NCBI GenBank assembly: GCA_964509885.1
Contig: CAZDZL010000004.1
Span: 12,167 to 76,166, forward strand
Length of the DNA stretch: 64,000 bases
Reading direction: 5' to 3'
Source: an uncultured Opitutaceae bacterium
GTDB taxonomy: Bacteria > Verrucomicrobiota > Verrucomicrobiia > Opitutales > Opitutaceae
Both the position numbers and the translations under genes were made by a program. This document shows positions 1,007 to 52,246 of the stretch, one piece after another. Under the pieces are notes generated by a model. The model had not been told where the DNA came from. It saw nothing but the letters and a program-made list of their open reading frames with translations, and made no database searches. Numbering within the stretch: the stretch's first letter is position 1; each line of letters opens with the position of its first letter.

Positions 1007-1447
1007 CTAGGGAACCTTCAGCACGAGTGCTGCGAAGCCATCAGCTTCGATCGTCACCGTGTCGCCTGTCGAGAGCCCGTAGATAGTCCAGGACTCAGCC
1101 CGGGCGACAATGTGCTCGGGAATCTCCTTTGTCTTGCCGTGGGCGTCGGACCCCATGTTCAGGAGCACGATTCCGCCGGCCTTGACCGAATTGCCGGAAG
1201 TGTTCTTGAGGGTGAGTCCAAAAGGTCCGTTGTCGCCGTCTTCCTTTTCGAAAGTTCCGGACAATGGAAGGGCGGGAAGGCTGGCATCCATGCGCCTTAG
1301 CTCGACCCCAATGGCGCCTGCCCTCGATGCCGGGACAAGGACCGTGGCGAGGCTGAAGATGCAGCCCAGAGCGGTCACCGTGACTTTGCCCATGGCCGGG
1401 CGGGCCCGCATGGACGTTGAACGCCTCAATAGTCGGAGATTCGTCAT
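1007..1447 (-). CDS. hypothetical secreted protein
   Basis: N-terminal hydrophobic signal-like segment (VTALGCIFSLATVLVPASRAGA). GC-rich third codon positions. No recognisable domain. Several in-frame Met, so the start is uncertain. Confidence 0.5.
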   Translation of the reverse strand: MTNLRLLRRSTSMRARPAMGKVTVTALGCIFSLATVLVPASRAGAIGVELRRMDASLPALPLSGTFEKEDGDNGPFGLTLKNTSGNSVKAGGIVLLNMGSDAHGKTKEIPEHIVARAESWTIYGLSTGDTVTIEADGFAALVLKVP

Positions 1448-4933: not shown

Positions 4934-6982
4934 TCAGAAATCGTGAATCACCTTCGGAGGAAGCGCGGCTCGCAATGCATTCAGAATTGCCAGCACGTCG
5001 ATGATCTCCTGCGCGATGGCGCCGCTTACGGGATTCAGGTGCCCCGTCGCCGCGAAGCCCATGCCGAAGATACTCAGGGCCATGCCGCCCACCGCGCTCT
5101 GCAGCGCGATAACGCGCATGCGCCGGCTGATGTGCATGACCTCATCCACCTTGGTGAGTGAGTTGTCCATGATGACGATGCCCGCCGCCTCGGACGTCAC
5201 GTCGCTGTTCTGGCCGATGGCCACCCCGACCGTGGCGGCCATCATCGCGGGTGCGTCGTTTATCCCGTCGCCAACGTAAAGGGTCTTCGCCTTGGCGGTC
5301 TCCTCGCGAACAATGGCAAGCTTCTGCTCCGGGCTCCTCTCCGCATATATCTCGGTGATGCCCACCTGCTCGGCAAGATACCGCACCTCCGACTCACGGT
5401 CGCCCGAGACCAGCATGACGCGCGCAAAGTGGTGCTTCGGGCCCAAATGGCCCACGAATGCGCGGCTGTCGCCGCGTGGGGCGTCCCGGAATCGCAGCAA
5501 CGCGGCGTACCTGCCGTCGATCGCCACGACGCATTCGAGTCCACCGGCAACCGGCGGGATCTTCTCGCTACCCGGAACAGCTTGTGCCGCCAGTTTGCCC
5601 CGACTCGTCACCTGCACGGATCGGCCGGCAACTGTCCCGCGCAGGCCTTGACCCGGGGCCTCGCTCACCTCGGCGGCCTCAGGAATCTCGATGCCAGCCT
5701 CGCTCGCCGCGGCCAGGACCGCCCTGGCCAGCGGGTGCCTGGAGTAGCGCTCCAGTCCCGCAACGAGGGTCAGCATCTCTCGCTGCCCGATGCCTGGGGC
5801 GAGGATCTGGTCGGTCAGCCTCGGTTCCCCGTAGGTCAGCGTCCCGGTCTTGTCGAAGATGGCGGTGCGGCATCCGGCGATCTGCTCGATCACCGCCGAG
5901 CTTTTGACAATGATCGCTCGGCGCGCGCAGAGGGAGATGGATCCAATAATGGCTATGGGGATAGCGAGCAGCAGCGGGCACGGCGTGGCGATCACGAGCA
6001 CGGCGAGGAATCGGGTTGAGTCGCCGCTGAACGCCCAGGCAAGCGAGGCGCCCACAAGGGCCACCGGCGTGTAGATCGCGCCAAGCTGGTCACCGAGCCT
6101 CCTCAGCCTGGGCCGCTTGCTCTGCGACTCGCGCATCACCTCCATGATCCTTGCGTAGCGCGAGTCGGCCGCGAGATGCGTCGCGCGTATCGTAAGGGCC
6201 GACTCTCCGTTGATGGCACCCGAGATCACGGCCGATCCGCTTGTCTTCGTTATCTGGAACGGCTCGCCCGTCAGATAGGATTCATCCATCGTTCCATGGC
6301 CCTCGATGACCACGCCATCGACCGGGCATATCTCATGCGGGTATACCGCGATCATGTCGTCCAGGGCGATCTCCTGCAACGCGATGTCTGCGATTGCAGG
6401 TCCCTGTTTTCGGTGGGCTACCGAAGGCATCCTCTTGGCCAGGGCCGCCAAGGCCGACGAGGCCCTGCGCAACGCAAAGCTCTCGAGAGCCTCCCCTCCG
6501 GAGAGCATCAGGACGATGATCGAGCCCGCGAGATACTCGCCCAGCACGAGCGAGGTGACGATCGAGATGCCGCCGAGAAGGTCGGAGCCGAACTCCCGCC
6601 TCAGGACCCTTTTCGACAGGTCATAGATAAGGGGGATCCCCCCGATGACGAGAGTGGCGAGCAGAGGCAATCGGCACAGGCGCGGTGGCGCCTGGAACCC
6701 GAAGCGGAGCATCAAATAGGCGAGGATCCCGCCGGCGGAGATAGCCGCAATGACCGTCGTTCGGCGCTGCCAGAGGGCGCCCATCCAAGCCCAGGAGGTG
6801 CCTGTCAGGTTCCCTTGGCTCGGATCGCTTGGCGGGGTCTTGCGAGGTTCGGCTGAAGCTGCAGGCGTCATTGAAGTCTGGGGAAGGATAGCATGTTTCA
6901 CTCGCCCCGTTAGACCACTTGTTGCCAAAAGAGATGCATTGCTTGGCCGCCACCCATGCGGTGGCGGGACTGCAGCATCCAT
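4934..6982 (-). CDS. heavy-metal translocating P1B-type ATPase with a TPCP transmembrane motif and no N-terminal metal-binding domain
   Basis: DKTGTLT phosphorylation site, GDGINDAPA hinge, TGEP actuator motif, and [13 protein letters not shown] in the TM4-equivalent helix. No CxxC HMA domain. An alternative start is the Met at 6871. Confidence 0.9.
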
Positions 6983-7001: not shown

Positions 7002-7700
7002 CTATCCCTTACCTTGGGCCAGCTCGCCCGCGTAGAATTCCTGCGCAGTCCGCAGCAGTTGCGCCTCGGTGAGGTGGTGCTGGTCCACGACTATGGATCC
7101 GATCACCCTCCGGGATATCTCCGGATGCTTGGAGTCGAGCCATTTGGTGAATTCGCCCATCTCGCTACCGGTTCCCTTTCCGCTGCCCACAACGAGGATA
7201 GCCCCATTCCTTCCCAGCACTTCGGCGACCGGCCCGAAGAAACTGTTCGGGTCGGGTCTCTCGCGACCCCGGGCGAAGTCCTTCGAGTTGTGCGCGTGAC
7301 GGAAGTGGTCCTCTGGCTTGTGCGGCATTATCCGCGAGGGAACGGACCCGTGCATCACGGAACGGAATACCCGGGCCTCGTGGTGGTTGATAACCACCAG
7401 CCAGTGGGCCTCCTTCTCTGCGGCATCGGCCAAGGGCGCCTCGGAACCCTCGAGGAAATGCCTGAGCTCCATCAGGCGCTCCACATCCACGGTCTCGCCC
7501 GGCTGGTGGCCCCGGATGACAAGGACGTTGCCATTGCGGCCAAATCTCAGGCATCCGTTCGGCTCCTCCACGACCGTTCCAAGCCGCTTGAGAAGTGCTC
7601 GGGTCTCCCGCCAGCCCAGGTTGTGCGAGATGGGGTGGCAAAAAATCTTTCGATAGCTGCGCAGATGTGCGCCGCTCAGTTCTGTTTCCATGGGTGACAT
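7002..7700 (-). CDS. uncharacterised two-domain protein (copy 1): HicA-like N-terminal region plus host-attachment/eRF1-like C-terminal region
   Basis: 232-aa ORF with GC-rich third positions. By-eye alignment to the ORF at 53618-54304 shows roughly half or more of residues identical. Shared blocks include HPxSHNLxWR, [29 protein letters not shown], GKGTxSEM and HHL(T/S)EAQLL. Confidence 0.8.
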
Positions 7701-7731
7701 ATTTGGGAGGCTCAGGGGTTGGAGATGCAGT

Positions 7732-8022
7732 CTAGGCTGCGAACCCGAACCGGAACCGCTCCTCCTCCGGCCTGATGTTGAGTGTGACGCAGATCATCCG
7801 GGAAGCGGCTCCGGAGGCCGCCACCTTCACCATCCGGTCAAAGTCCGCCTTCGGGAGATCCGCCCCCTCGCGTCGGATCGCGTGGAGACCGAATCCGCGC
7901 TCCAGGAGGAGCTGGAGGAACTCCTCGCAGGCAACGGGGTCATCCGTCACGTACTGGTGCTTCTCGGGCTGCGAATGCTTCCGGAGCTGCAGGCTGTATT
8001 CGATGGAGTATTTCTTGAGCAT
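7732..8022 (-). CDS. hypothetical 96-aa protein
   Basis: First gene of the minus-strand operon, 31 nt upstream of 7700. Coding-like third-position GC. No recognisable motif. Confidence 0.55.
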   Translation of the reverse strand: MLKKYSIEYSLQLRKHSQPEKHQYVTDDPVACEEFLQLLLERGFGLHAIRREGADLPKADFDRMVKVAASGAASRMICVTLNIRPEEERFRFGFAA

Positions 8023-8068
8023 GGTGGTGTCCTCTGGTTGTTAGACCGGGGAGGGCGCCCCCTTTGGA

Positions 8069-9364
8069 ATGTCCTCTCCCGTCGGGCACAATCTAGCGCA
8101 ACCGGCTCCTGCTCGCTGGGCACTTCTTGGCGTTTCCCTCCCGGATCTTGCCAATTGGTTTCGGCCTGCCCCGAGGGCGCGCGACATGACGGATCGCCTC
8201 CCCCGCCTCTCTCCCGTGGGGCCGAGGGGCCTTGCAGCGGGGCGCCTTAACGTTCATTGTCAGGCCCTGTTGCCCAACGAGGATTTCACGTCCCTGACCA
8301 AGAACGCGCTCATCGCCCGGCTCCGGGACCTGAAGCGGGAACGGCTGGTGACGAACAAGGAGCTACGCGACGTAAAGGCGGCGCTCGACCAGCACTCAAT
8401 CGTGGCCATAACCGATGCGTCGGGGAAGATAACCCACGTCAACGACAAGTTCTGCGCGATCTCGAAGTATTCGAGGGACGAGCTTCTCGGGAAGGACCAC
8501 CGCATCATCAACTCCCACCACCATCCGAAGGAGTTCTTCCGGAACCTTTGGTCCACCATCGGCCGAGGCGAGGTCTGGTGCGGGGAGCTCAGGAACCGGG
8601 CAAAGGACGGCTCGATCTACTGGGTGGACACGACCATATTTCCCTTCGTCAACGAGTCGGGCAAGCCCGTCAAGTACGTGGCCATCCGGACCGACATAAC
8701 GAAGCGGAAGGCGGACGACGAGGAGCACCTGAGGCTCGAGGCCGAGCTTCTCGCGTCCAGCGAAAGGGAAAGGCTCAGCATAGGCTCGGACCTCCATGAC
8801 GGCCTCGGACAGCAGCTGACGGCCGTCGAGTTCATGTGCGCCGCGCTTAGGGAGGACATCGCGCAGAGGCATCCCGAGCTTGCCAGGCGCGTCGGGCAGG
8901 TCGGCGCCAGGCTCAGGGAAGCCGTCGCGTTGACGCGAAACCTCTCGCGAGGGCTGGTGCCCGTTGGCACCGGCCCGGACGCCCTCCAGAACGGGCTCGC
9001 GGACCTTGCCGAGCGCACAAGCGAGATTGGCGGCGTCCTCTGCCGATTCGAGTGCCGCGGTCCGCTGCCGGCGCTCGACCCCTCGACCGCGGGCCATGTC
9101 TACAGGATCGCGCAGGAGGCGACGAACAACGCGGTGAAGCACGCCCGCGCCGGGAGGGTCGCCGTTCGCCTGGAAAAGAGGGACGGCAGCCTGATGCTGG
9201 AGGTCGCGGACAACGGCACCGGAATGGGCAAGCAGAACCTCGAACGACGGGGCCTTGGCCTCGGCCTTATGCGCCACCGTGCCAACGTGATCGGGGGCGA
9301 ACTCTCCATAGTCTCGGTTCCTGGCCAGGGCGTCACGGTGACATGCACGGTGCCGATCCGATGA
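8069..9364 (+). CDS. PAS-domain sensor histidine kinase (HisKA_3 / NarL-partner type)
   Basis: PAS core (IVAITDASGKITHVNDKFCAISKYSRDELLGKDHRII..). H-box SDLHDGLGQQLTA. HATPase N/G boxes (EATNNAVKHA, DNGTGM, GLGLMRHR). An alternative ATG is at 8186. Confidence 0.9.
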   Translation: MSSPVGHNLAQPAPARWALLGVSLPDLANWFRPAPRARDMTDRLPRLSPVGPRGLAAGRLNVHCQALLPNEDFTSLTKNALIARLRDLKRERLVTNKELRDVKAALDQHSIVAITDASGKITHVNDKFCAISKYSRDELLGKDHRIINSHHHPKEFFRNLWSTIGRGEVWCGELRNRAKDGSIYWVDTTIFPFVNESGKPVKYVAIRTDITKRKADDEEHLRLEAELLASSERERLSIGSDLHDGLGQQLTAVEFMCAALREDIAQRHPELARRVGQVGARLREAVALTRNLSRGLVPVGTGPDALQNGLADLAERTSEIGGVLCRFECRGPLPALDPSTAGHVYRIAQEATNNAVKHARAGRVAVRLEKRDGSLMLEVADNGTGMGKQNLERRGLGLGLMRHRANVIGGELSIVSVPGQGVTVTCTVPIR

Positions 9365-10074
9365 TGAAGAAGAAGGCAAAGGTGCCCTCCGCGCCTTCCC
9401 GGCCCGCCCCGGTCCGCCGGCGCATAGCGATCGTGGACGACCATCCCTTCATGAGGGCGGGGCTCGCACAGCTCATAGGCCGCCAGCCCGACATGGAGGT
9501 GGCCGGGGAGGCCGGTGACCCCGCGGAGGCCATCAAGGCCTTCGCAAGATGGGCGCCTGACCTCGTGCTCGCCGACATGACCATGCCGGGAAGAAGCGGC
9601 CTCGAGTTCATCAGGGACATCCTCGCCGTGTATCCCGGCATGGCCGTGCTCGTGTTCTCGATGCATGACGAGGCGATCTACGCCGAGCGCGTCCTGCGCG
9701 CGGGGGGTCGCGGCTACATCATGAAGGAGTCGGGCGGCGAGAACCTCCTCGCTGCCATCCGCCAGGTGCTGCGCGGGGAGGTCTACGTGAGCGAGCGGAT
9801 GTCACTGCGGATCCTGGAGACATTCTCGGGGCGGCTCCCGAGGGGCTCGAGCTCCCCGATCGGCAAGCTCACGGACCGCGAGTTCGAGGTCTTCCAGCTG
9901 ATCGGCGCCGGCAGGAGCACAAAGGAAATCGGCGTCCTCCTGGGCCTGAGCAGCAAGACCGTCGACGTCCACAGGGGCCACATAAGGGAGAAGCTCGGGC
10001 TCAAGGACACGACCGCGCTGGTGCGGCACGCGGTGCGCTGGGTCGAGGCCGAGGGCGGGCCGGGCAAATCCTAG
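9361..10074 (+). CDS. NarL/FixJ (LuxR-type HTH) response regulator
   Basis: The ATG overlaps the kinase stop (ATGA). Receiver motifs IAIVDDHP .. LVLADMTMPG. C-terminal LuxR HTH (LTDREFEVFQLIGAGRSTKEIGVLLGLSSKTVDVHR). Confidence 0.95.
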   Translation: MMKKKAKVPSAPSRPAPVRRRIAIVDDHPFMRAGLAQLIGRQPDMEVAGEAGDPAEAIKAFARWAPDLVLADMTMPGRSGLEFIRDILAVYPGMAVLVFSMHDEAIYAERVLRAGGRGYIMKESGGENLLAAIRQVLRGEVYVSERMSLRILETFSGRLPRGSSSPIGKLTDREFEVFQLIGAGRSTKEIGVLLGLSSKTVDVHRGHIREKLGLKDTTALVRHAVRWVEAEGGPGKS

Positions 10075-10667
10075 GATTGGGGCGATCCGGTCTGGTCAGC
10101 GGCGCCCTCGTCCCAGGTCATGACATCCGGCTCCTGCCTTGGGGGCGCCTCCGGCTGCCCATGTGGCCAGCCGATCGCTATGGGCATGACAGCGACACAT
10201 GACTCCGGGACGTCCAGCTCGCGCTTCATTTCGGGAAGATCGAGCCATGCCCGCACGAAGCCCACGGGGCAGGCTCCCAGGCCCAGCCCATGGGCGGCAA
10301 GCAGCAGGTTCTGGGCGGCCATGCAGCAGTCTCTGGCGGGGTCGTATTGGGCCGGCTTGGCATAGATGACGACCAGTACCGGGGCATGGTGGAAGGCGTG
10401 GTAGCCCGGATCCGCGAGCGCCTCTGCCCTCCTGTGCATCGAGAGCGCCCCGGGAAGGGCCGCGAACATGTACTGCTTGGCCCGATCTGAGTATTCATCC
10501 AGGCGCCGCGCGTTGCGGATGACCACAAAGGCCCAAGGCTGCTGGTTCACGGCGCTCGGAGCCCAGGTGGCGGCCCGGACCAGCTCCGCGATGGACTCCT
10601 TGGCAACTGGGCGGCGGGTGAAGCTGCGCACCGATCTCCTGGTGAGTATTGCATCCATGAGTTCCAT
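10071..10667 (-). CDS. nitroreductase family protein
   Basis: N-terminal ILTRRSVRSF..P and APSAVNQQPW motifs. About 198 aa. Paralog of 20710-21273. Confidence 0.9.
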   Translation of the reverse strand: MELMDAILTRRSVRSFTRRPVAKESIAELVRAATWAPSAVNQQPWAFVVIRNARRLDEYSDRAKQYMFAALPGALSMHRRAEALADPGYHAFHHAPVLVVIYAKPAQYDPARDCCMAAQNLLLAAHGLGLGACPVGFVRAWLDLPEMKRELDVPESCVAVMPIAIGWPHGQPEAPPRQEPDVMTWDEGAADQTGSPQS

Positions 10668-10689: not shown

Positions 10690-11265
10690 TTATTCCTCGG
10701 GTCCGCAGCGACCGATTTTTGGGCGTTCTGCGCGAAAGGGGAGCTGCGGGTTCACGTCGACGCGGTCCAGCCAGGAATCCGCCATCTCGCGCGTCATCGG
10801 GAAGAACTCCAGTGTGCCCCCCTCCCCGTTGGCCGATGCCGCCGCCGAGGTCCCGTACCGACAGAGGGAGCAGAAGGTCGCCACTTCCCGGCTGGCGATG
10901 GAGCGGATGATGGCCTGGACCTCGGCGACCGCGGTCTGGCTCGCCTCGTCCGTGAGTCCCACGGCCTCCCCGAGCAAGCAAAGCACCGCCTCCTCGCAGG
11001 AGGGGAAATAGGCCAGGAGAGGATTGCGCCCGCACGCGCATGTCCCCCAGATCGCCTCCTGGGTCGGGACCGGCGCAAACGGATGCGTGCCGGGCAGAGC
11101 GCGCACCCTCCTGAAGACCTCATCGAGGGTGGACCCAAAGAGACGCTCGAGTATCTCGGGATCGGCAAGCGGGGAGTTCACCAGCCTTGAACGAAGGAGA
11201 GCGGCCCAGCGCGCCGAGATTTGGGCCTTGGAGCGCTGGAGGTACTGAAGGGGTGCGGGTTCCAC
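10690..11265 (-). CDS. hypothetical Cys-rich protein (RsbRD_N-like N-terminus)
   Basis: 191 aa, 22 nt upstream of the nitroreductase. The N-terminal pattern (QISARWAALLRS...) resembles RsbRD N-terminal domains from memory. Cys motifs are CxC, C-x5-C and CxxC. Confidence 0.6.
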   Translation of the reverse strand: MEPAPLQYLQRSKAQISARWAALLRSRLVNSPLADPEILERLFGSTLDEVFRRVRALPGTHPFAPVPTQEAIWGTCACGRNPLLAYFPSCEEAVLCLLGEAVGLTDEASQTAVAEVQAIIRSIASREVATFCSLCRYGTSAAASANGEGGTLEFFPMTREMADSWLDRVDVNPQLPFRAERPKIGRCGPEE

Positions 11266-11481: not shown

Positions 11482-11712
11482 ATGTCCGCCTTCCCCATCA
11501 CGCTCACCATCAGCCTCTGCCTCGCGTTCACTTTTGTCCTCTTCTTCCTCTGCGAGCGCCTGAACGGCCGCAGGGGAAGCGCGGAGCACGACTCGCTCCT
11601 CCCGCTGGCCGACGAGTCCCCCCGCCTGGCGCGGGCCAGGAGCGAAGCGGATGAGGGCTGCACGTCCGGATGCCGTTGCGACGATTGCCCGAACCGCGCC
11701 TGCCGGCCGTGA
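11482..11712 (+). CDS. ccoS: CcoS/FixS-like cbb3 maturation protein with a Cys-rich C-terminal tail
   Basis: Single N-terminal TM helix (ITLTISLCLAFTFVLFFL) followed by G..(acidic)..LLPLADE, like the CcoS G-Q-Y-D-D..L..DD pattern. Located directly before ccoN. Tail is CTSGCRCDDCPNRAC. GC-rich third positions. Confidence 0.55.
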   Translation: MSAFPITLTISLCLAFTFVLFFLCERLNGRRGSAEHDSLLPLADESPRLARARSEADEGCTSGCRCDDCPNRACRP

Positions 11713-11720
11713 CCACGGCT

Positions 11721-14051
11721 ATGCCCGAAATGCCCTCCAGGACCGTCACGGTCGAGTTTAACGACAGGGTTGTCAGGCAGTTCCTCGTCGCCTCCCTTGT
11801 CTGGGGCGCCGTGGCCATGACGGTCGGCGTCCTGATCGCCGCGCAGCTCAACTACTGGCAGCTCAACTTCGCCACGCCCTGGCTGACGTGGGGGCGCCTG
11901 CGCCCCCTTCACACAAACGCGGGCATCTTCGCCCTCGTCGGGAACATGATGTTCGCGGGCATCTACTATTCGACGCAGCGCCTGGTAAGGGCCCGTCTGG
12001 CGAGCGACTTCCTTTCGGCGGTGCACTTCTGGGGCTGGCAGATGATCATCGTCGCCGCCGCCATCACGCTCCCCCTCGGTTTCTCCCGGGGGAAGGAATA
12101 CGCGGAGCTTATTTGGCCGATCAACATCGCCGTGACCCTCATCTGGGTCGTCTTCGGCGTGAACTTCTTCTGGACGCTCGCGAGGCGCCGGGAGCGCAGC
12201 CTCTACGTCGCCATCTGGTTCTACATCGCGACCATCGTGACGGTGGCGATGCTCTACATCGTCAACCACCTCTCGATCCCGACGAGCTTCACCCACAGCT
12301 ACCCGCTCTTCGGCGGCGTGCAGGACGCGCTGGTGCAGTGGTGGTACGGGCACAACGCCGTGGCGTTCTTCCTCACCACGCCGATCCTCGGCATCATGTA
12401 CTACTTCCTGCCGAAGGCGGCGGAGCGGCCCGTGTACTCCTACAGGCTCTCGGTGATCCATTTCTGGTCCCTGGTCTTCGTCTACATCTGGGCCGGTCCC
12501 CACCACCTTCTGAACACCGCCATCCCCGGCTGGCTGCAGTCCCTCGGCACAACGTTCTCGCTCATGCTCTGGGCCCCGTCCTGGGGCGGCATGCTGAACG
12601 GCCTCCTCACCCTTCGGGGCGCATGGGACCGCGTGAGGACGGACCCCGTGCTCAAGTTCTTCGCGGCGGCCGTGACCTTCTACGGCATGGCGACGCTCGA
12701 GGGGCCCCTCCTCTCGATCCGGAGCGTCAACGCGCTGGCGCACTACACCGACTGGATCATCGGGCACGTGCACATCGGCACCCTCGGCTGGAACGGGTTC
12801 ATGGCGGCGGGGATGATCTACTGGCTCCTGCCCCGCCTCTGGAACAAACCGCTTTATTCGACACAGCTCGCCAACCTCCATTTCTGGGTGGGGACCGTCG
12901 GCATCCTTCTCTACGTCGCGGCGATGTGGACGAGCGGCATCACCCAGGGCGTCATGCTGAGCGCGACGACCGAGCACGGCACGGTCCTGGCCTACCCCAA
13001 CTTCCTCGACACGCTGAACACCATCCGGCCGATGATGCTCATGCGCATGATCGGAGGCGCGCTCTACCTCACGGGGTGGCTGCTCATGGCCTACAACTTC
13101 TGGCGGACGGTGCGCGGGGCCAAGGCGGTCAACGGGACCATAGAGGTCTTTGCGGACGAGCCCGCCGCAAAGGAGGAGACGGTCACCCTCGTGGGGACAT
13201 TCCTGAACCCCCCGGTCGTGTTCTCGCTCCTCGGGGTCTGCTTCGCCAGCGTCTGGATGTTCGGGGGCAACCTGCTGAGCATCGCGGGGCTCATGGCCAT
13301 GGGCGTCGTCGTCTGCCTGGCCTACGTCCACTTCGAGATCCGGGGCTACAAGTGGTCCGCATGGTACGACCGCCTTCTCGCCAACCCCGTCCCCTTCACG
13401 ATTCTTGTGATTCTCGCGGTCTTCGCGGGAGGCATGATACAGATCATCCCGACGGTGGTCGCCCACCAGGCGGCAAACGTCGAGGACCGCCGGCAGATCC
13501 CCTACACGCCCCTCGAACTCGAGGGCCGGGACCTGTACGTGCGCGAGGGGTGCTACCTGTGCCATTCCCAAATGATACGCACGCTGGTGCCCGACGTCCT
13601 GCGGTACGGGGACTACTCGCGCCTTGGGGAGTCGATCTACGACCACCCCTTCCAGTGGGGCTCGAAGCGCAACGGCCCCGACCTCGCGCGCGTCGGCGCA
13701 AAGTACCCGAACGTCTGGCACCTGCGGCACCTGGAGGATCCCCGGTCGGTCTCCGTGGGCTCAAACATGCCGACCTACCCCTGGCTCCTCGCCAATCCCC
13801 TGGATACCTCCACCCTCATGAGGAAGCTGGCCGTCATGCGCACGCTGGGCGTGCCCTATCCGAACTGGACGCCGGAGCAGGTGGACGCGCGGGTAAACGA
13901 GCAGGCCAAGGCCATCGCCCTCGACCTGCGCGGCGCCGGCGCCTACGTCGCCCCCGACCGCGAAGTCATCGCCCTCATCGCCTACCTCCAGGGCCTCGGG
14001 AAGTATGAGAAGATCCCCGCGAAGGCGCCCTCCGATGTGGACCCCCCCTGA
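11721..14051 (+). CDS. ccoNO: cbb3-type cytochrome c oxidase, fused subunits I and II (CcoN-CcoO)
   Basis: Heme-copper oxidase subunit I pattern with multiple TM helices and conserved His (HFWSLVFVYIWAGPHH, GHVHIGTLGW). The C-terminal part carries the CcoO heme-c site EGCYLCHSQMIR. One uninterrupted frame. An alternative ATG is at 11670. Confidence 0.95.
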   Translation: MPEMPSRTVTVEFNDRVVRQFLVASLVWGAVAMTVGVLIAAQLNYWQLNFATPWLTWGRLRPLHTNAGIFALVGNMMFAGIYYSTQRLVRARLASDFLSAVHFWGWQMIIVAAAITLPLGFSRGKEYAELIWPINIAVTLIWVVFGVNFFWTLARRRERSLYVAIWFYIATIVTVAMLYIVNHLSIPTSFTHSYPLFGGVQDALVQWWYGHNAVAFFLTTPILGIMYYFLPKAAERPVYSYRLSVIHFWSLVFVYIWAGPHHLLNTAIPGWLQSLGTTFSLMLWAPSWGGMLNGLLTLRGAWDRVRTDPVLKFFAAAVTFYGMATLEGPLLSIRSVNALAHYTDWIIGHVHIGTLGWNGFMAAGMIYWLLPRLWNKPLYSTQLANLHFWVGTVGILLYVAAMWTSGITQGVMLSATTEHGTVLAYPNFLDTLNTIRPMMLMRMIGGALYLTGWLLMAYNFWRTVRGAKAVNGTIEVFADEPAAKEETVTLVGTFLNPPVVFSLLGVCFASVWMFGGNLLSIAGLMAMGVVVCLAYVHFEIRGYKWSAWYDRLLANPVPFTILVILAVFAGGMIQIIPTVVAHQAANVEDRRQIPYTPLELEGRDLYVREGCYLCHSQMIRTLVPDVLRYGDYSRLGESIYDHPFQWGSKRNGPDLARVGAKYPNVWHLRHLEDPRSVSVGSNMPTYPWLLANPLDTSTLMRKLAVMRTLGVPYPNWTPEQVDARVNEQAKAIALDLRGAGAYVAPDREVIALIAYLQGLGKYEKIPAKAPSDVDPP

Positions 14052-14073
14052 CGGATCACACAAGCCCGCCCCC

Positions 14074-14274
14074 ATGTTCCAACGACTCATCTACGAGGAT
14101 TCCGCCGCGCTCTTCACGCTCGCGGCGTTCATCACAGCGGCCTCGATATACTGCGCCATCAGCTGGCGCGCGCTACAAATGAAGCGACCCCAGCTCGAGC
14201 ACTTCGAGAACCTGCCGTTCGCCACAGAGACGCCCCCCGCCCGCCATGCCGATACCGCCAAATCCGACGCCTGA
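14074..14274 (+). CDS. ccoQ: CcoQ/FixQ-like small membrane subunit
   Basis: ATG at 14074. One TM helix (LFTLAAFITAASIYCAISW). Position between ccoO and ccoP. Confidence 0.5.
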   Translation: MFQRLIYEDSAALFTLAAFITAASIYCAISWRALQMKRPQLEHFENLPFATETPPARHADTAKSDA

Positions 14275-14833
14275 GGACCCCCTGCGCGAGCATGCGTACG
14301 ACGGGATCCGGGAATTCGACCGGCGACTGCCCAACTGGTGGCTCCTCACCCTCTATGCGAGCATAGTCTACTGGCTGGGCTTCTGGTCCTATTATGAGTG
14401 GATCCATGCCGGCCCGGACGGCCCCCACCGCGTCGACGCCGAGATGGCCCGCATCGAGGCCGACAGGCTCGCCTCGTCCCCCGCCCTGGACGACGCCGGT
14501 CTCTGGAAATCGAGCCGCAATGCCGTCATGGTGGACGCGGGCCGGGCGACCTTCAACTCCACCTGCGCGGCCTGCCACCTTGCGAGCCTCCGGGGCAAGG
14601 ACGAGAACCCGGCCGCGATCGGGCCCAACCTGACCGACACGACGTGGATCCATGGCGGCCGGCCGACCGAGGTCTACGACACGGTCACAAAGGGTGTCCT
14701 TGCCAAGGGAATGCCGGCGTGGGGGCCGGTCCTCGGCCAGAGGAGGATCTCCGAGGTGGTCGCCTACGTGATGAGCCACCACACGGAGGGTGAGCCCATC
14801 GTGGCGGCGCCCGCGGACCCGGCGCCCCGATGA
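14246..14833 (+). CDS. ccoP: cbb3 oxidase subunit III (CcoP), monoheme form
   Basis: N-terminal FixP signature DGIREFDRRLPNWWL plus a TM helix. Only one CxxCH (CAACH) in 195 aa. Confidence 0.85.
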   Translation: MPIPPNPTPEDPLREHAYDGIREFDRRLPNWWLLTLYASIVYWLGFWSYYEWIHAGPDGPHRVDAEMARIEADRLASSPALDDAGLWKSSRNAVMVDAGRATFNSTCAACHLASLRGKDENPAAIGPNLTDTTWIHGGRPTEVYDTVTKGVLAKGMPAWGPVLGQRRISEVVAYVMSHHTEGEPIVAAPADPAPR

Positions 14834-14836
14834 AGC

Positions 14837-16270
14837 ATGGCCTCAAACCTTCCAAACCTGGACGCCGTCACGACGATCCGCAGCGACGGCTCGCGGCCCT
14901 TCGTCCATCCGGCTGACGTTCACGGCCGGTTCGCCCGGGCCAGGCGGATGTCCGCGTACCTCCTGATTGTGACCTACCTGGCTCTGCCCTGGGTCAGGGT
15001 GCGGGGATACCCCGCCGTGTTCTTCGACGTCGCCAACCGGCGCTTCCACCTGTTCGGCGCCACCCTCGCCGCCCAGGACATGTGGCTGCTCTTCTTCGCC
15101 ATCACGGGCCTCGGCTTCTCGCTTTTCCTCGTCACGGCCCTCCTCGGGCGCGTCTGGTGCGGCTGGGCCTGCCCGCACACCGTGTTCCTGGACCACGTCT
15201 ACCGCCGCATCGAGCGCTGGATCGACGGGGACGCGGTGCGCCGGCGCGCGCTCGACGCGGCCCCCTGGTCCCCCGGGAAGCTGGCCCGGCGCGCCGCCAA
15301 GGGCGCCCTGTTCCTCCTGGTCTCGGCGGCGATCGCCCACCTCTTCCTGGCGTACTTCGTGTCGATCCCCGACCTCTGGGGGATGATGGGCGCGGCGCCC
15401 GCCGAGCACTGGGGCCTCTTCGTGTTCATGGCCGTGTTCACGGGCGCGCTCTATTTCAACTTCGCCTGGTTCCGCGAGCAGCTCTGCATCGTCATCTGCC
15501 CCTACGGGAGGCTCCAGTCGGCGCTCATCGACGACAATTCGCTCGTGATCGGCTACGACAAGGCCCGCGGGGAACCCCGCGGAAAGGCGGGCACGGCCGG
15601 CGCGGGCGACTGCGTGGCCTGCAACCGCTGCGTGCATGTCTGCCCGACGGGCATCGACATACGCCAGGGCCTCCAGATGGAGTGCGTCGGCTGCACCGCC
15701 TGCATCGATGCATGCGACGAGGTGATGTCCCGGCTCGCCCGCCCGAGGGGCCTCATCCGCTATGACTCCCAGAACGCATTCGCGGCGCGCGCCACCCGCT
15801 GGATCCGGCCGCGCACGGTGCTCTACGCGGCGCTTCTGCTCGCCGGGGCGGGAGTGTCCACCTGGGCGCTCTCGACGGTGCACCCCGTCAGCTTCGGCGT
15901 GACCCGCATCACCGGGGCGCCGTACATTGTCGACGCCGCCTCGGTCCGCAACCAGTTCCTCATCAGGCTCGTGAACAAGCGGCCGGGGCCGTCCTCGTTC
16001 ATCCTCACCCTCTCCGGACTGCCCGGGAACATCCGCCTGAGCGGCTTCGAGCAGGCCGTCGTCGTGCCCCCGATGGGCGAGGAGGTCCGCCCTCTCATCC
16101 TGCAGCAGCCGCGGGAAAGCTACGCCGCGCCTTTCGTGTTCGAGGTGCACCTCAGGGATGTCGCCGGGAACTACGAGCTGAAGCGCGCGGCTGAATTCCT
16201 CGGGCCCGATGCGAGGCTCCTGCGCGAGGAGGAGCAGGAAAGACATGAGCAACCCAAAACCCGCCCCTAG
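14837..16270 (+). CDS. ccoG: cytochrome c oxidase accessory protein CcoG/FixG (4Fe-4S ferredoxin type)
   Basis: CGWACPHTVF motif, CVACNRCVHVCPTGIDIR and CVGCTACIDAC ferredoxin clusters, and TM helices. Confidence 0.9.
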   Translation: MASNLPNLDAVTTIRSDGSRPFVHPADVHGRFARARRMSAYLLIVTYLALPWVRVRGYPAVFFDVANRRFHLFGATLAAQDMWLLFFAITGLGFSLFLVTALLGRVWCGWACPHTVFLDHVYRRIERWIDGDAVRRRALDAAPWSPGKLARRAAKGALFLLVSAAIAHLFLAYFVSIPDLWGMMGAAPAEHWGLFVFMAVFTGALYFNFAWFREQLCIVICPYGRLQSALIDDNSLVIGYDKARGEPRGKAGTAGAGDCVACNRCVHVCPTGIDIRQGLQMECVGCTACIDACDEVMSRLARPRGLIRYDSQNAFAARATRWIRPRTVLYAALLLAGAGVSTWALSTVHPVSFGVTRITGAPYIVDAASVRNQFLIRLVNKRPGPSSFILTLSGLPGNIRLSGFEQAVVVPPMGEEVRPLILQQPRESYAAPFVFEVHLRDVAGNYELKRAAEFLGPDARLLREEEQERHEQPKTRP

Positions 16271-16400
16271 CGGGGGCCGCATGCGGCCCTGGTTCTGGGT
16301 CCTCGCCGTGTTCGCGCTCCAGATCGCGGCATGGACGGCATGGATGATGCTCGCCGCGCGCCATCCCGTCGCCGAGGTGCCGCTCACCACGTCCCGCTGA
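16245..16400 (+). CDS. small single-TM protein in the position usually held by CcoH/FixH
   Basis: ATG at 16245 preceded by GGAGCAGGAA. TM helix WFWVLAVFALQIAAWTAWMMLAA. Overlaps the end of ccoG. Confidence 0.4.
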   Translation: MSNPKPAPSGGRMRPWFWVLAVFALQIAAWTAWMMLAARHPVAEVPLTTSR

Positions 16401-16405
16401 CCGGC

Positions 16406-17101
16406 ATGGACCTCGCCGCCGTCAACTCGCCGGAGACAGCCTTTGTCGCGGGGCTCATCACCAGCCTGCACTGCGCCGGCATGTGCGGGCCGCTCGCCTG
16501 CTCGCTCATGCCGATGCGGGGCGACCGCTCGGACGCCCAGGTCGTGAGCACGGTCTACCACTCCACCCGCCTCGGCGCCTACACGGTCCTCGGCGCCGTG
16601 GCGGGCGGGCTGGGAGGCGCCCCCCTGTCCTGGTTCACCCACTCCGCGCTGAGGTGGCTCCCCTGGGTGATGGTGCTCTTCTTCCTCGCCCTCGCGCTGC
16701 GATGGGACCGGTACATCCCCAGGCCGTCCTTCCTCGGAAGGTGGGTGCTCCGCCTTCAGGGGAGCCTGCGCGGCATGCCCCGCACCCGGGCCGCGGCGGC
16801 GCTCGGACTGGCCACGCCGCTCCTGCCCTGCGGGCCGCTCTACTTCCTGGTGGCCCTGGCCCTGCTGTCAGGTTCCGCGCTGCGCGGGGCGGAGTTCATG
16901 CTGGCGTTCGGCCTTGGGACGGTGCCGCTCCTCTGGCTCGTGCAGACGCAGTTCTACCGGGTGAACGCATGGCTGTCGCCGGCATGGGCCGCCCGGGGGC
17001 GCATAGTTCTCTCCCTAACGGCCGCGGCCGTCATCGCATGGCGCCTTCGGGCCACGCTCGGGTTCCCGGGCCCGGACCCGGCCTCGCTGATCTGCTTCTG
17101 A
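16406..17101 (+). CDS. DsbD_2 / TauE-like membrane protein of the cco maturation cluster
   Basis: ATG at 16406. N-terminal FVAGLITSLHCAGMCGPLA motif and about 6 TM helices. Confidence 0.8.
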   Translation: MDLAAVNSPETAFVAGLITSLHCAGMCGPLACSLMPMRGDRSDAQVVSTVYHSTRLGAYTVLGAVAGGLGGAPLSWFTHSALRWLPWVMVLFFLALALRWDRYIPRPSFLGRWVLRLQGSLRGMPRTRAAAALGLATPLLPCGPLYFLVALALLSGSALRGAEFMLAFGLGTVPLLWLVQTQFYRVNAWLSPAWAARGRIVLSLTAAAVIAWRLRATLGFPGPDPASLICF

Positions 17102-17102
17102 G

Positions 17103-19544
17103 ATGCCCGCGCCCCTCTTAGAGCCCGCCCCCGCGGCCCCCCGGCGAGCACACCCTGGGTGCCGCCACTGCGGCGCCCCGCTCATCGACACCCGGATGCA
17201 GGAGACGGGATTTTGCTGCACGGGCTGCGCCTACGTCCACCGGCTGGTGGCGGAGCACGGGCTGTCGAAATTCTACCGGATAAAGGATCCCGTCACCGCG
17301 CCGACGGACCCGGCCGTTTTCCAGCCTCGGGACTACACGTGGCTCGGGGAGGCTCAGGCGCAGGCCGAGGACGCGATCCCCGCACCAGGGATCCCCTGCC
17401 TCACCCTCGGGATCCAGGGAATTTCCTGCGCGGGCTGCGTCTGGCTGATCGAGCGGCTCTATGGCCAGCAGCGGGGCGCCAGGGACGTGGTGGTCAACGC
17501 GCAGCTCGGCACGATGCATCTGCGCTGGGTCCGCGGGGAGTTCTCGGCGGTCGACTTCGCGCGAAGACTGCAGTCGTTCGGATACCTGACCGGACCCTCC
17601 GATAGCGGGGCCGATGGGCCCGCGAGCCGCGGAATGGCCACCCGCATAGGGCTTTGCGCGGCATTCGCAATGAACGTGATGCTCTTCACCCTTCCGACGT
17701 ATTTCGGGATGGCGCCCACGTCGGAATATGCGCGGCTCTTCAGCCTTCTCTCGGCGGTCTTCGCGACGCTTAGCTTCCTCGTCGGGGGGACCTATTTCCT
17801 GCGGCGCGCGGCGCAGGCCCTTCGCGAGGGGGCGGTGCACATCGACCTGCCGATCGCGCTCGGGGTCATCGGTGCCTATGTCGGCTCCCTGGCCGGATGG
17901 CTGCTGGGCGACGCCCGGTTCGTCTACTTCGACTTCGTCTCGGCGTTCATCCTTCTGATGCTTGTCGGCCGGTGGGCCCAGGTGGCGGCGGTTGAGCGCA
18001 ACCGGCGGCGCCTGCTCAGCCTGCAGCCGGTGCCGCAAAGGGTGCGTGTTGTCGCGCCGGACGGCCTTATAAGCGAGGTCCCCCCGCAGCGCATATCCAA
18101 TGGGCAGGTCCTCATCGCGGCTCCCGGCCAGGTCGTTCCCGTGGACTCGCGGCTCGACGCCGCGACCGCCGACTTCTCGCTGGCCTCGATCAACGGCGAG
18201 GCCGAGGCGAGGACCTTCCGCCACGGCCAGCGCGTCCCCGGGGGTTCCGTCTGCCTCAGCCTCGGAGGGATCCGCCTCGTGGCGCAGCAGCCGTGGGGCG
18301 AGTCGCTTCTGGCGCAGCTGACGGCGCCCGCGTCGCGCGGCGGATGGCACCAGAGATTCCTCGAGTCCGTGATCCGGGTCTACCTGGTCTCCACGATCGC
18401 CGTCGCCGCCCTCGCCGGCCTTGGCTGGTGGCTCTCGAGCGGCGACGTGCAGCGCACATGGTCCGTCGTCATCTCGGTGCTCGTCGTGTCGTGCCCGTGC
18501 GCCATAGGGCTGGCCATCCCCCTTGCCGACGAGATAGCGACCGTCGCCGTCCGCCGGCACGGGGTGTTTGTCCGCGAGGGCGACCTCTGGGCTAGGCTCG
18601 GGCACGTGCGAAAGCTGGTCTTCGACAAGACGGGCACGCTCACGCTGGAATGCCCCGAGCTTGAGAATCCGCAGTCGCTGCGGGCCCTTGACCACGAGGC
18701 GCGGTGCGCGCTTCTCGCGCTCGTGCGCGACAATCCCCACCCCGTCAGCCAGAGTCTCTGCGGCAACCTATTGGCCGACGGGGCGCACCAGCCAGCCGAC
18801 GGCGACATTCGGGAGACGGTGGGCATGGGCGTCGAGATCACCGCTGCCAACGGGCGCACCTGGTCGCTTGGCCGGCCGGGATGGACCCATGCCGGCGCCG
18901 GCCATGGGAACGGGTCCACCGGCCAAGGCGACGACGGGACCTCGGCCATCCTGGCTTGCGATGGAAGAGCCGTCGCCCGGTTCAGCTTCTCAGACCGGGC
19001 CCGCCCGGATGCACAGGCGGAGTTGGCCGCGCTCTCATCGCAGGGATATGCAACCTACATCCTGAGCGGGGACAGGAGCTCCAAGGTGGCCGCACTGGCC
19101 GCCGAGCTCGGCCTGCCCGCTGGGAGATGCCTGGGGGAGCTCAGTCCCCAGGGCAAGGCCGACTGGCTGTGCGAACACGGCGCGGGCGACGCACTTATGC
19201 TCGGCGACGGTGCCAATGACAGCCTTGCTTTCAACCAAGCGCTCTGCAGGGGCACACCGGTCATCCATCGGGGGCTGCTCGAACAAAAGGCCGACTTCTA
19301 CTACCTGGGCCGCGGGATCGCGGGGATAAGGGCCCTGTTTGAGGTCAACGCCACCCGCCGCCGCGTCCGGGGCGTGATCCTCGCGTTTTCAGTGGCCTAC
19401 AACCTAGTTGTCGTCGGACTCGCCGTCACCGGCCGCGTGAATCCCCTGGTGGCCGCGGTCCTCATGCCGGCGAGCTCGCTGGCCACACTGGCGATCGTGG
19501 GTCTCGGCATGCGCCGCGCGCTGACGATGTCCCGGCGCGACTGA
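17103..19544 (+). CDS. ccoI: copper-translocating P1B-type ATPase CcoI/FixI
   Basis: N-terminal Cys-rich ATPase cation-binding region (CRHCGAPL..CCTGCAYVH), HMA-like GISCAGCVWLIE, CPC motif (VSCPCAIGLAIP), DKTGTLT and GDGANDS. Confidence 0.9.
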   Translation: MPAPLLEPAPAAPRRAHPGCRHCGAPLIDTRMQETGFCCTGCAYVHRLVAEHGLSKFYRIKDPVTAPTDPAVFQPRDYTWLGEAQAQAEDAIPAPGIPCLTLGIQGISCAGCVWLIERLYGQQRGARDVVVNAQLGTMHLRWVRGEFSAVDFARRLQSFGYLTGPSDSGADGPASRGMATRIGLCAAFAMNVMLFTLPTYFGMAPTSEYARLFSLLSAVFATLSFLVGGTYFLRRAAQALREGAVHIDLPIALGVIGAYVGSLAGWLLGDARFVYFDFVSAFILLMLVGRWAQVAAVERNRRRLLSLQPVPQRVRVVAPDGLISEVPPQRISNGQVLIAAPGQVVPVDSRLDAATADFSLASINGEAEARTFRHGQRVPGGSVCLSLGGIRLVAQQPWGESLLAQLTAPASRGGWHQRFLESVIRVYLVSTIAVAALAGLGWWLSSGDVQRTWSVVISVLVVSCPCAIGLAIPLADEIATVAVRRHGVFVREGDLWARLGHVRKLVFDKTGTLTLECPELENPQSLRALDHEARCALLALVRDNPHPVSQSLCGNLLADGAHQPADGDIRETVGMGVEITAANGRTWSLGRPGWTHAGAGHGNGSTGQGDDGTSAILACDGRAVARFSFSDRARPDAQAELAALSSQGYATYILSGDRSSKVAALAAELGLPAGRCLGELSPQGKADWLCEHGAGDALMLGDGANDSLAFNQALCRGTPVIHRGLLEQKADFYYLGRGIAGIRALFEVNATRRRVRGVILAFSVAYNLVVVGLAVTGRVNPLVAAVLMPASSLATLAIVGLGMRRALTMSRRD

Positions 19545-19585: not shown

Positions 19586-20551
19586 TCATGCCGCCCTGGT
19601 GAGGGCGCCGTTGCGGCCGGTCGGCGAGATCCCGCGGTGCAGCCTTTCGCGGAAACTCGACGGAGCCTCGCCGGCCACGCGCCGGAAGACCCGGTTGAAC
19701 TGCGAAAGCGACTGGAAGCCCGCCTCGTAGGCGGCCTCGCTGACGCGCTTGTGTGGATCCAGGAAAAGTTTCTTGAGCGTCTCCACGCGGATCCTCGCAA
19801 GGTAGTCCACGAACGTCAGGCCCGTCTCCCTCTTGAACATCTTGCAGAAGTAGAACTCGCTCAGGTTCACCGCGCGGGCGACCACGGCCAGCGACAGCTC
19901 CTCCGACTGGTGCTCGGCAATATAGGAGCGGGCCCTGGCGATCACGGGCGCCTCCGACAGGTTCTGGGTGACCACGATCTGGTTGCTGATCGCCGAGAGA
20001 TGCTGGCCGAAGACCGAGAGCAGCCTGAGGGCCGAATCATACTGGCGCCGGGCAAGGATGCGCGTGCCGAAGTACGCCTTCTCAAGCGCGGACCTGTTCA
20101 CTTGGACCTTCCATTCGGCGAGCTGGGCGAGAATCCTCCCGAAACGGGCCTTGGTCGGCTTGCTAAGCATGACCTGCCCCGTCTGGAGGTAGCCCACGAC
20201 CGTGGCGCCCACGCGGATCGGCACGGAGGACTCGCTCAACCCGGCGAAGCACTCCAGCGTCTTGGTCCCATGGTTGGCCTCCTGCTCCACCCTCTGCTGC
20301 AGCTGCAGGCAGGCCGCGCACGTCCTGTTCGTCCCGGCCATCAGCTCGCAGAAGGCGTTCCTGCGCCTCGACCCCTGAAGGGAGGCCTGGAAGGATCCCG
20401 TTGCCCTCATCCCCAGCGGGAGGCCGGTGGTTCCCTCAAAGGCCCCGTGGTAGTCGCGGTAGACCTCCGACTTCTCAAGCTGCGCGATCGTGTGCCGGTT
20501 GTTGCGATCGGCCGCGTCCGCTTCGGGCGGGTGTGAGGGCGTTGGGTGCAT
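19586..20551 (-). CDS. AraC-family transcriptional regulator with a PocR-like sensory domain
   Basis: The N-terminal half has the PocR-type Cys pattern (FCELMAG..RTCAACL.. ECFAGL). The C-terminal half has AraC double-HTH motifs (LSEFYFCKMFKRETGLTF.., GFQSLSQFNRVFRR). Confidence 0.85.
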   Translation of the reverse strand: MHPTPSHPPEADAADRNNRHTIAQLEKSEVYRDYHGAFEGTTGLPLGMRATGSFQASLQGSRRRNAFCELMAGTNRTCAACLQLQQRVEQEANHGTKTLECFAGLSESSVPIRVGATVVGYLQTGQVMLSKPTKARFGRILAQLAEWKVQVNRSALEKAYFGTRILARRQYDSALRLLSVFGQHLSAISNQIVVTQNLSEAPVIARARSYIAEHQSEELSLAVVARAVNLSEFYFCKMFKRETGLTFVDYLARIRVETLKKLFLDPHKRVSEAAYEAGFQSLSQFNRVFRRVAGEAPSSFRERLHRGISPTGRNGALTRAA

Positions 20552-50464: not shown

Positions 50465-50629
50465 TTGTTTTGTTTTTGGGGAGATGGGACCCCGGCCGGA
50501 AACGCCGTACGGGAGCTTCAATACCAAAGTGTCTCTGTCAGGCGGCGCTTCCCCCGGCCCTGCGGGCGCCGCGGGCGGCTTTCTCGCACCCTTGCGGGGC
50601 GGGGGCATGGGCGGGTGTCTGATGCGTTG

Positions 50630-50716: not shown

Positions 50717-50753
50717 TCAGTCCGCACCCATCGCGTGTACCTTCCACCTCGCA

Positions 50754-52232: not shown

Positions 52233-52246
52233 AATGGATTTGGGGC

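Follow-up and report, generated by a model that had tools for sequence, protein, structure and literature searches.

A large unannotated protein family of Verrucomicrobiota with a predicted aeRF1-like domain and a stress-promoter box

The window described here is a stretch of 64,000 nucleotides (nt) from an uncultured Opitutaceae bacterium of the phylum Verrucomicrobiota (GenBank assembly GCA_964509885.1, contig CAZDZL010000004.1, positions 12,167 to 76,166). It encodes two copies of a protein, here called X, whose family carries no annotation. X1 is a 232-amino-acid open reading frame (ORF) at positions 7002-7700 on the minus strand, and its paralog, X2, lies at 53615-54304 on the plus strand. 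In predicted models, X has two domains, and the C-terminal one resembles the M domain found in eRF1, Pelota, and other aeRF1-type proteins. The reading that we favor, tentatively and with slightly less than an even chance of being right, makes X a compact stress protein, aeRF1-like but GGQ-less, that would be induced as part of a general-stress regulon and act non-catalytically on the ribosome as Balon and Dom34 do.

A predicted aeRF1-like fold

X1 and X2 have no match in Pfam (E values up to 1), NCBIfam (E values up to 10), PADLOC, or the sequences of the PDB, in agreement with an earlier note on this DNA that saw no obvious assigned function for the protein. Searches of PDB sequences with X1 and with the profiles A1, A2, and A3 gave chance-level matches only. 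What, then, points toward release factors? The answer lies in structure, and the structural evidence throughout comes from predicted models. An AlphaFold (AF2) model of X, built from a 40-sequence alignment, has a mean predicted local distance difference test score (pLDDT) of 82.5 and divides X1 into a HicA-like alpha/beta domain (approximately residues 1-88) and an aeRF1/Pelota-like domain with an RNase H fold (approximately residues 98-228). The latter is RNase H-like, with its elements in the order beta-beta-beta-alpha-alpha-beta-alpha-beta-alpha. When the full model was compared with the PDB by Foldseek, ranks 1 through 33 were all occupied by Pelota, aRF1, eRF1, Dom34, or Balon. The best match was Pelota (3oby; E value, 2e-6; probability, 1.00), while the isolated M domain of human eRF1 (2hst) gave a TM score of 0.50 and Balon (8v9j) an E value of 3.7e-3. 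Other RNase H-like/ASKHA proteins, such as Ppx/GppA and YqgF, first appeared at rank 34, with E values of 0.017 or worse. Alignments that span both domains have a high root mean square deviation (rmsd) because the orientations of the domains differ.

Sequence landmarks of the aeRF1 M domain also fall in register in the X alignment. These are the strand beta1, LVVIDHHEAR (ending D/N-x-x-x-A), a long loop, the helix FFxPVAxAL, and the strand beta4, ILVFGTGxG. Distant members of the family add weak profile hits. The member P0225 matches baeRF_family10 below threshold over residues 114-229 (E value, 5.9e-4), three distant members match baeRF_family12 below threshold, and baeRF_family2 and Host_attach were matched as well. 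All of these start exactly at the C-terminal domain and are co-linear with it, with scores of 14 to 21 bits against cut-offs of about 27 bits. Because X1 and X2 themselves match no baeRF model, the homology of X to aeRF1 rests on the predicted fold and on these weak hits in relatives. Together, the 33 best Foldseek matches and the co-linear hits support the suggestion in the earlier note that the C-terminal 135 or so residues are eRF1/baeRF-like.

Does X keep the catalytic residue of the release factors? Among the 40 X members, Gly145 is invariant and is followed by Q, R, K, E, or M. Since this next residue varies, the catalytic glutamine of the GGQ motif is not conserved. As modeled, the C-terminal domain is probably a divergent, stand-alone aeRF1 M-like domain, and probably a non-catalytic one. 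An RNase H-type nuclease was considered separately and rejected: the acidic residue of beta1 is Asn in both X1 and X2, and nuclease folds rank far below aeRF1 folds.

The X family

At 90% identity, 396 clusters belong to the X family with E values up to 1e-3, none of which bears a Pfam domain and whose named members are all labeled "hypothetical protein." An exhaustive profile search found 1,445 representatives at 50% identity. Most members in GTDB species genomes come from Opitutaceae or from other Verrucomicrobiota; a small number are in planctomycete, cyanobacterial, and other bins, and several bins carry two copies on separate contigs. Among close members, LVVI(D/N)HHEAR is one of the best-conserved stretches, and the loop at the GGQ position is the best-conserved segment of the family.

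Within the window, both ORFs reported by the earlier note were recovered, and X2 proved to be the clear paralog that it had placed near 51555-54304: the two proteins are 56% identical over 225 aligned amino acids (E value, 5e-93). The true start of X1 is probably the ATG at 7691, since a database protein 100% identical to X1 is 229 amino acids long. The ORF of X2 opens at 53567, and the family alignment and the DNA both point to the TTG at 53615 as its likely start, giving a product that would begin with MNPTHTLSGSHL.

In one distant member, P0179, a DUF2934 domain (E value, 3.9e-8) replaces or extends the N-terminal region; stand-alone DUF2934 genes (cluster c19) are found as X neighbors in several loci, preceded there by the promoter box described below.

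Stress neighborhoods and a shared promoter box

In what company is X found? Eighty genome loci were fetched, their ORFs were called heuristically by length and third-position GC content (GC3), and the ORFs were clustered and the clusters annotated. Recurrent neighbors of X include a gene pair encoding a DnaJ+DnaJ_C protein and a MerR_2 protein (CbpA/CbpM-like), a double PRC-barrel protein, a class I aldolase, acetate kinase, BON (OsmY-like) proteins, extracytoplasmic function (ECF) sigma factors, nitroreductases, and P-type ATPases. Genes for YflT, DUF883 (ElaB/YqjD-like), DnaK, KaiC-like, glyoxalase, and DUF2934 proteins occur near X as well. The X neighborhoods are a general-stress gene set.

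Many of these genes share a promoter element with X. About 100 nt upstream of X lies a box with the consensus tAGGGTTACACCCCATag and the palindromic core GGGT-N3-ACCC (GGGT-N3-ACCCCAT), present in 44 of 81 upstream regions and in 39 to 45 loci, or some 60% of them, X2 included. Downstream of the box, at a constant spacing of about 22 nt, comes a conserved (C/T)AnnnT hexamer. A weak -35 hexamer would fit in between, 17 nt before the TAnnnT hexamer, so that the center of the GGGTTACACCCCAT box would fall near -43, like an activator site next to a sigma-70 promoter. Readings of the box as an ECF-sigma or sigma-54 promoter were rejected, in that TAnnnT lies about 22 nt downstream and neither GGAAC/CGTC nor GG-N10-GC is conserved.

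A position weight matrix (PWM) was trained on the sites upstream of X and applied with a cut-off of 14 bits, and expectations were taken from first-order Markov shuffles. In the pooled loci plus the window (877 kb), 161 sites scored at least 14 bits, where 1.8 were expected; the window alone has 7, against 0.03 expected. Genes other than X that are preceded by the box include those for PRC-barrel proteins (18 sites), ECF sigma factors (8), BON proteins (4), and kinase/regulator operons (4), and these boxes all have the TAnnnT hexamer at the same distance. An unbiased check made use of metagenome contigs containing the exact 17-mer AGGGTTACACCCCATAG, which yielded 120 contigs (676 kb) with 130 sites. 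The identifiable genes downstream were led by BON (9), followed by PRC-barrel (4) and YflT (4), and superoxide dismutase (SOD)-like and lipoprotein-like ORFs were recognized by eye. The box appears to be a sharply defined stress-promoter element that is apparently undescribed in Verrucomicrobiota.

Which protein would bind it? The best candidate is RR2, a NarL-type regulator with Response_reg and GerE domains (51555-52232, minus strand), whose partner HK2 (52247-53371, minus strand) is a kinase with HisKA_3 and HATPase_c domains and an N-terminal region of about 170 amino acids to which no domain is assigned. These Pfam assignments bear out the earlier note, which had seen a second, different NarL-type system beside the paralog. 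Orthologs of HK2 and/or RR2 (50 to 66% identity) are found on 10 of the 120 contigs that were selected only for the exact box, which suggests strong enrichment of HK2-RR2 near boxes if the operon is assumed to be single copy. A box variant lies 98 to 129 nt upstream of HK2 orthologs in three loci (L125, L089, and L117), and the HK2-RR2 box is also present in L004. In other Opitutaceae (L004, L005, L020, and L043; tblastn), RR2 is 84 to 97% identical, against 67 to 72% for HK2 and 58 to 71% for X2. Because HK2-RR2 is enriched near boxes and is itself preceded by one, and because RR2 is unusually conserved, we infer that RR2 is the likeliest box-binding activator and that it may regulate its own operon positively. 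Conservation at the level seen in RR2 is what would be expected of a global regulator with a fixed DNA target.

How X might act

A mechanism can be outlined, each step of it conditional. Stress of some kind, plausibly low oxygen or stationary phase, would lead an activator to bind the box and to turn on X along with genes for chaperones and stress proteins; the best candidate for that activator is RR2 phosphorylated by HK2. X would then bind the ribosome non-catalytically, with its M-like domain and basic His-rich loop at the A-site/peptidyl-transferase center (PTC) side. In eRF1, Pelota, and Balon alike, the M domain reaches the PTC. The His-rich loop of X would stand in for the GGQ or lasso loop, while the N-terminal domain would serve as an RNA-binding anchor. 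The outcome would be translation that is dampened or protected, much as with Balon or Dom34.

Of the known groups, the baeRF-1 clade, comprising baeRF_family1 through baeRF_family12 and Host_attach (PF10116), comes closest. Burroughs and Aravind (2019; PMC6514570) describe three stand-alone families of this clade with an RNase H core and without the Gln, and they predict that these bind ribosomes non-catalytically. The catalytic Gln of GGQ is present only in active release factor families. X shares with baeRF-1 an RNase H-fold core, a loop at the GGQ position, the lack of a conserved Gln, and the absence of flanking aeRF1 N and C domains; both are bacterial and occur in stress contexts, and distant X members give weak co-linear hits to baeRF-1 profiles. 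The differences are also clear. X1 and X2 fail all of the Pfam models, and their core carries a HicA-like domain at its N terminus, a fusion that the main text of PMC6514570 does not mention. Moreover, the loop is the best-conserved segment of X rather than a poorly conserved one, the helix that follows it is without the conserved arginines, and no HPF gene was seen nearby.

A second comparison is with Balon, an eRF1-like protein shown in 2024 to hibernate bacterial ribosomes (Helena-Bueno et al. 2024; PMC10901736). The examples known so far retain the full set of three eRF1 domains; the N domain of Balon bears the HP motif, its M domain the lasso loop and the bL27 trap, and its C domain the EF-Tu beta-hairpin. 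Homologs of Balon are encoded near DnaJ/DnaK, alternative sigma factors, and OsmY and can be present in several copies per genome, and one of them, Rv2629, is induced by hypoxia (PMC10901736). Like Balon, Rv2629, and Msmeg1130, X combines a GGQ-less aeRF1-like fold with stress-cluster genes and several copies per genome. The hypoxia induction of Rv2629 under the NarL-type regulator DosR has a parallel in the surroundings of X1 and X2, where genes for NarL-type systems, nitroreductases, a P-type ATPase, and a cbb3 oxidase are found. Is X then a Balon? It is not, because a Balon has three domains and the model of X has two and no C domain. X consists only of the M-like domain and an unrelated small N-terminal domain, bears no detectable sequence similarity to Balon, and is about 230 residues long, compared with 362 to 375 residues for the PDB chains of Balon homologs.

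The regulatory side can be compared with the DosS/DosT-DosR dormancy regulon of Mycobacterium tuberculosis, as a functional analogy only. There, as in HK2-RR2, a HisKA_3 kinase acts with a NarL regulator, a palindrome-cored box lies near the -35 region of many stress genes, and the operon of the regulator itself carries the box. The DosR regulon likewise takes in an aeRF1-like protein, the Balon homolog Rv2629, as well as nitroreductases, a P-type ATPase, and proteins of the chaperone or stress kind. The DosR box is GGGAC-N4-GTCCC, whereas the box here is GGGT-N3-ACCC; the sensor domains and the phylum also differ, and the pairing of regulator and box is inferred here.

Several observations weigh against a ribosomal role under this regulon. 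At the level of sequence, X matches no PDB entry for aeRF1, Pelota, or Balon, and a Pfam scan of X1 and X2 (E values up to 1) gave no hit to the models for baeRF, Host_attach, or eRF1_2. X has no decoding domain and no GTPase-binding domain of the aeRF1 kind, and it is missing the N and C domains by which such factors are positioned in the A site. The helix after the loop is without the conserved Arg/Lys that Burroughs and Aravind regard as the rRNA-contacting signature, and the isoelectric point (pI) of X is near neutral, with a family median of 6.5. Among the annotated neighbor clusters of X, no HPF/RaiA gene was seen. On the regulatory side, the unbiased box scan found no X gene among its 130 sites, so the regulon must be large and X one minor member of it. 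The box-binding factor is deduced from co-occurrence only, and an ECF sigma factor or another regulator of the X2 island could fill the role. Finally, an enzyme or a metal/redox protein would be just as consistent with the conserved His-rich motifs and with the translational coupling of X to a quinone-oxidoreductase-like gene.

Alternative explanations

This last point leads to the best of the alternatives, namely, that X is a stress-induced enzyme or metal/redox-binding protein on an RNase H-like scaffold, working with a co-translated oxidoreductase and without any role at the ribosome. We consider it rather unlikely. In its favor is the strong conservation among close members. Over 40 diverse sequences, column identity averages 57%, and many His, Arg, and Asp/Asn positions are invariant, including H22, H26, H106, H127, H209, and DxHHL; 7% of the residues are His. 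The neighborhoods contribute as well. A Zn-ADH/quinone-oxidoreductase-like gene (ADH_N/ADH_zinc_N) lies directly downstream of X in 23 of 74 loci, and in 16 of the 23 (L014, L016, L017, and L023 among them) the stop of X overlaps the start of the oxidoreductase gene by 4 nt, which implies translational coupling; neither X1 nor X2 has this partner. A P-type ATPase gene adjoins X1, and its cluster is found near X in 12 loci, while the lower Foldseek matches include RNase H-like/ASKHA enzymes such as Ppx/GppA and YqgF.

Against an enzyme stand four things. The best structural matches are all aeRF1-type, with enzymes entering only at rank 34 and E values of at least 0.017. The His residues are not kept in the wider family, where only P23, W30, R80, and L188 reach 90% conservation (the distant set holds 40 members, 23 to 34% identical to X1). 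The beta1 Asp is Asn in X1 and X2, which argues against an acidic active site of the RNase H type, and neither Pfam nor NCBIfam revealed a cofactor-binding motif or enzyme family.

The two copies in the window invite another explanation, in which X serves the adjacent HisKA_3/NarL systems as a dedicated accessory or output partner, tied physically or genetically to each phosphorelay. X1 and X2 each face a HisKA_3 kinase and NarL regulator pair, the same adjacency is seen in three other loci (L004, L005, and L075), and X2 and HK2-RR2 share a divergent, box-containing promoter region. Is this pairing a property of the family? Of 74 X genes, just 10 have a HisKA_3 or NarL gene no more than 3 kb away; such genes account for 37 of the 963 ORFs in the same loci, and the adjacency to X is no more than this density. 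The commonest neighbors are unrelated stress genes, and the box-selected contigs with HK2-RR2 orthologs carry no X gene. A dedicated partnership with these systems is therefore improbable. The earlier note had proposed a family-wide link and had named enrichment of adjacent two-component systems among homologs as its test; no enrichment was found, and the general claim falls. What of the functional link that it drew from the two pairings in the window? The shared box supports a narrower link for X2 and HK2-RR2, but X1 has no box, and there is no pairing across the family.

The remaining alternative concerns the N-terminal domain. In the full model, this domain has three helices, three strands, and one helix; modeled alone (pLDDT, 71), it shows a dsRBD-like alpha-beta-beta-beta-alpha core. 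HicA (6g26_E) is its best geometric match, with a TM score of 0.68 when normalized to HicA and an rmsd of 2.3 Å over 59 columns, at an E value of only 0.42. Two distant members match HicA_toxin weakly, the better of them being P0224, which has an E value of 0.021 over residues 28-51 and keeps the GSGH motif. An hhalign comparison of the N-terminal profile with an E. coli HicA sequence reached a probability of only 0.7%, which is not significant, with the alignment in register. Thus, the HicA-like domain proposed by the earlier note is favored by topology and geometry and unsupported by these scores, and a HicA-like fold is plausible, a reasonable but unproven assignment. The same note observed that the catalytic GSH of HicA is replaced by NG, and this holds in that the position of the catalytic His is not conserved and the family has PNG(N/C) there. 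In sum of likenesses, the N-terminal 60 or so residues of X resemble HicA (PF07927) in their alpha-beta-beta-beta-alpha order and similar spacing; unlike HicA, they reach no significant score, lack the catalytic His and a HicB partner, and are fused to a larger domain.

Function as a HicA toxin is unlikely, and that X is a HicA-type mRNA interferase with an extra C-terminal domain is highly improbable, for all the topology of the domain, the 6g26 match, and the P0224 hit, given that the catalytic His position is lost, that the Foldseek and hhalign scores are poor, that no HicB-like partner is found among the neighbors, and that X genes are carried on the chromosome, conserved by vertical descent, and placed behind a stress promoter. 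A broader reading of X as a toxin-antitoxin or defense system component was also rejected, as the neighbors show no two-gene toxin-antitoxin layout and PADLOC gave no hit.

One feature of the N-terminal domain deserves mention in its own right. Residues 19-30 of X1 (IFxHPxSHNLxW) contain an almost invariant His-Pro, the Pro of which is at least 90% conserved even in the distant set. The decoding-center contact of Balon is likewise named the "HP motif," a likeness that may be coincidence.

The X2 locus and its stress island

X2 lies within an island of stress genes. A BON-domain (OsmY-like) protein is encoded at 49724-50710 on the minus strand (three Pfam BON domains; E value, 6e-44), and its cluster, c9, is present in 11 X loci. 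Next comes an ECF-type sigma factor (50754-51500, plus strand; Pfam Sigma70_r2, Sigma70_r4_2, and Sigma70_ECF), preceded by two overlapping box variants at 50685-50717 on the plus strand (sites 50685 and 50700; PWM scores, 14.7 and 16.6). Equivalent boxes are found 33 to 40 nt upstream of the orthologous sigma genes in six loci (L004, L005, L020, L055, L060, and L066). RR2 and HK2 follow, and between HK2 and X2 the divergent promoter region holds two boxes. One, TGGGGTTTTACCCCATCG (53491-53508, minus strand; PWM score, 16.7), is 120 nt upstream of HK2 and is followed by a -10-like hexamer, TATTTT. The other, CGGGTGAACACCCCATTC (53527-53544, plus strand; PWM score, 14.3), is upstream of X2, with the -10-like hexamer TATTGT at 53565-53570. 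Beyond X2, a strong box, TCGGGTTAAACCCCATAC (55586-55603, minus strand; PWM score, 23.1), faces an ORF for a 63-amino-acid membrane protein (55328-55519) and a PhyH-family gene (54301-55272; Pfam). The remaining boxes in the window are at 35206-35223 and 1528-1545, both on the minus strand. The latter precedes an ORF of 146 amino acids (1007-1447, minus strand) that has no Pfam match.

The X1 locus

The surroundings of X1 are of a different kind. A P-type cation ATPase (4934-6982, minus strand; Pfam E1-E2_ATPase and Hydrolase) starts 19 nt downstream of the X1 stop and is probably co-transcribed with X1. This ATPase has a TPCPL motif and no recognizable N-terminal metal-binding domain, and it may resemble the P1B-5-type (PCP) ATPases. 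Upstream of X1 and in the same direction lies small96, an ORF of 96 amino acids (7732-8022, minus strand) with no match in Pfam, NCBIfam, or PADLOC. Homologs of small96 (tblastn; 35 to 45% identity) adjoin X in seven loci (L041, L052, L057, L060, L065, L067, and L077) and run in the same direction as X, downstream of it there and upstream of it in the window. One X subtype may have small96 as a partner protein. A weight-matrix scan found no promoter box upstream of small96-X1.

Divergent from these genes is HK1 (8069-9364, plus strand), which may start at an internal ATG near 8183. Pfam finds PAS, HisKA_3, and HATPase_c domains in it and Response_reg and GerE domains in RR1 (9361-10074, plus strand), as expected from the PAS histidine kinase and NarL-type regulator of the earlier note, and the overlap of the two genes at ATGA, with the ATG of RR1 overlapping the HK1 stop, is real (9361-9364). 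The divergent pairing of X1 with the kinase that was also reported needs one correction: HK1 is indeed divergent, but small96 sits between it and X1. A nitroreductase-family gene (10071-10667, minus strand; Pfam Nitroreductase; E value, 7.8e-34) adjoins RR1, followed by an ORF of 191 amino acids (10690-11265, minus strand) without a Pfam match. A complete cbb3-type oxidase locus then extends over 11670-19544 on the plus strand, encoding a fused CcoN-CcoO, CcoP, and FixG-like, DsbD_2, and FixI-like P-type ATPase proteins (Pfam), and is flanked by genes for a PocR-AraC regulator (19586-20551) and a second nitroreductase (20710-21273), both on the minus strand. In their position beside the cbb3 locus, HK1-RR1 look FixLJ-like.

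The order at this locus is therefore small96/X1/ATPase, HK1/RR1, nitroreductase, cbb3 operon, PocR-AraC, and second nitroreductase. Part of it recurs elsewhere: the order fixG-like, c23, ATPase, (PocR-AraC), X is found again in three loci (L002, L041, and L070), and in L041 small96 then follows X. This recurring, oxidase-linked synteny suggests a low-oxygen link for the X1-type context, and X1 is probably a low-oxygen-linked copy under different control.

Significance

What would a protein of this kind add to the known ways in which bacteria manage their ribosomes? At its most far-reaching, the hypothesis would be that the X family is a new, widespread, and compact ribosome hibernation or rescue factor, a "mini-Balon" made up of an M-like domain, an invariant His-rich loop, and a HicA-like RNA-binding domain, and that it forms the translational arm of an undescribed GGGTTACACCCCAT-box regulon driven by a conserved HisKA_3/NarL system. 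We regard this full version as doubtful. If it were true, a family of more than 1,400 clusters would retain only the domain that reaches the PTC, fused to another small domain and invisible to current profile libraries, and the range of bacterial means of silencing or protecting ribosomes under stress would be wider. What is new is the X family, large and unannotated, for which a role at the ribosome is a hypothesis open to testing, together with a stress-promoter box. The Verrucomicrobiota are an abundant but poorly studied phylum of soil and freshwater, and these findings offer a handle on their stress physiology. Whatever X does, the box provides a directly testable definition of a general-stress regulon in Verrucomicrobiota.

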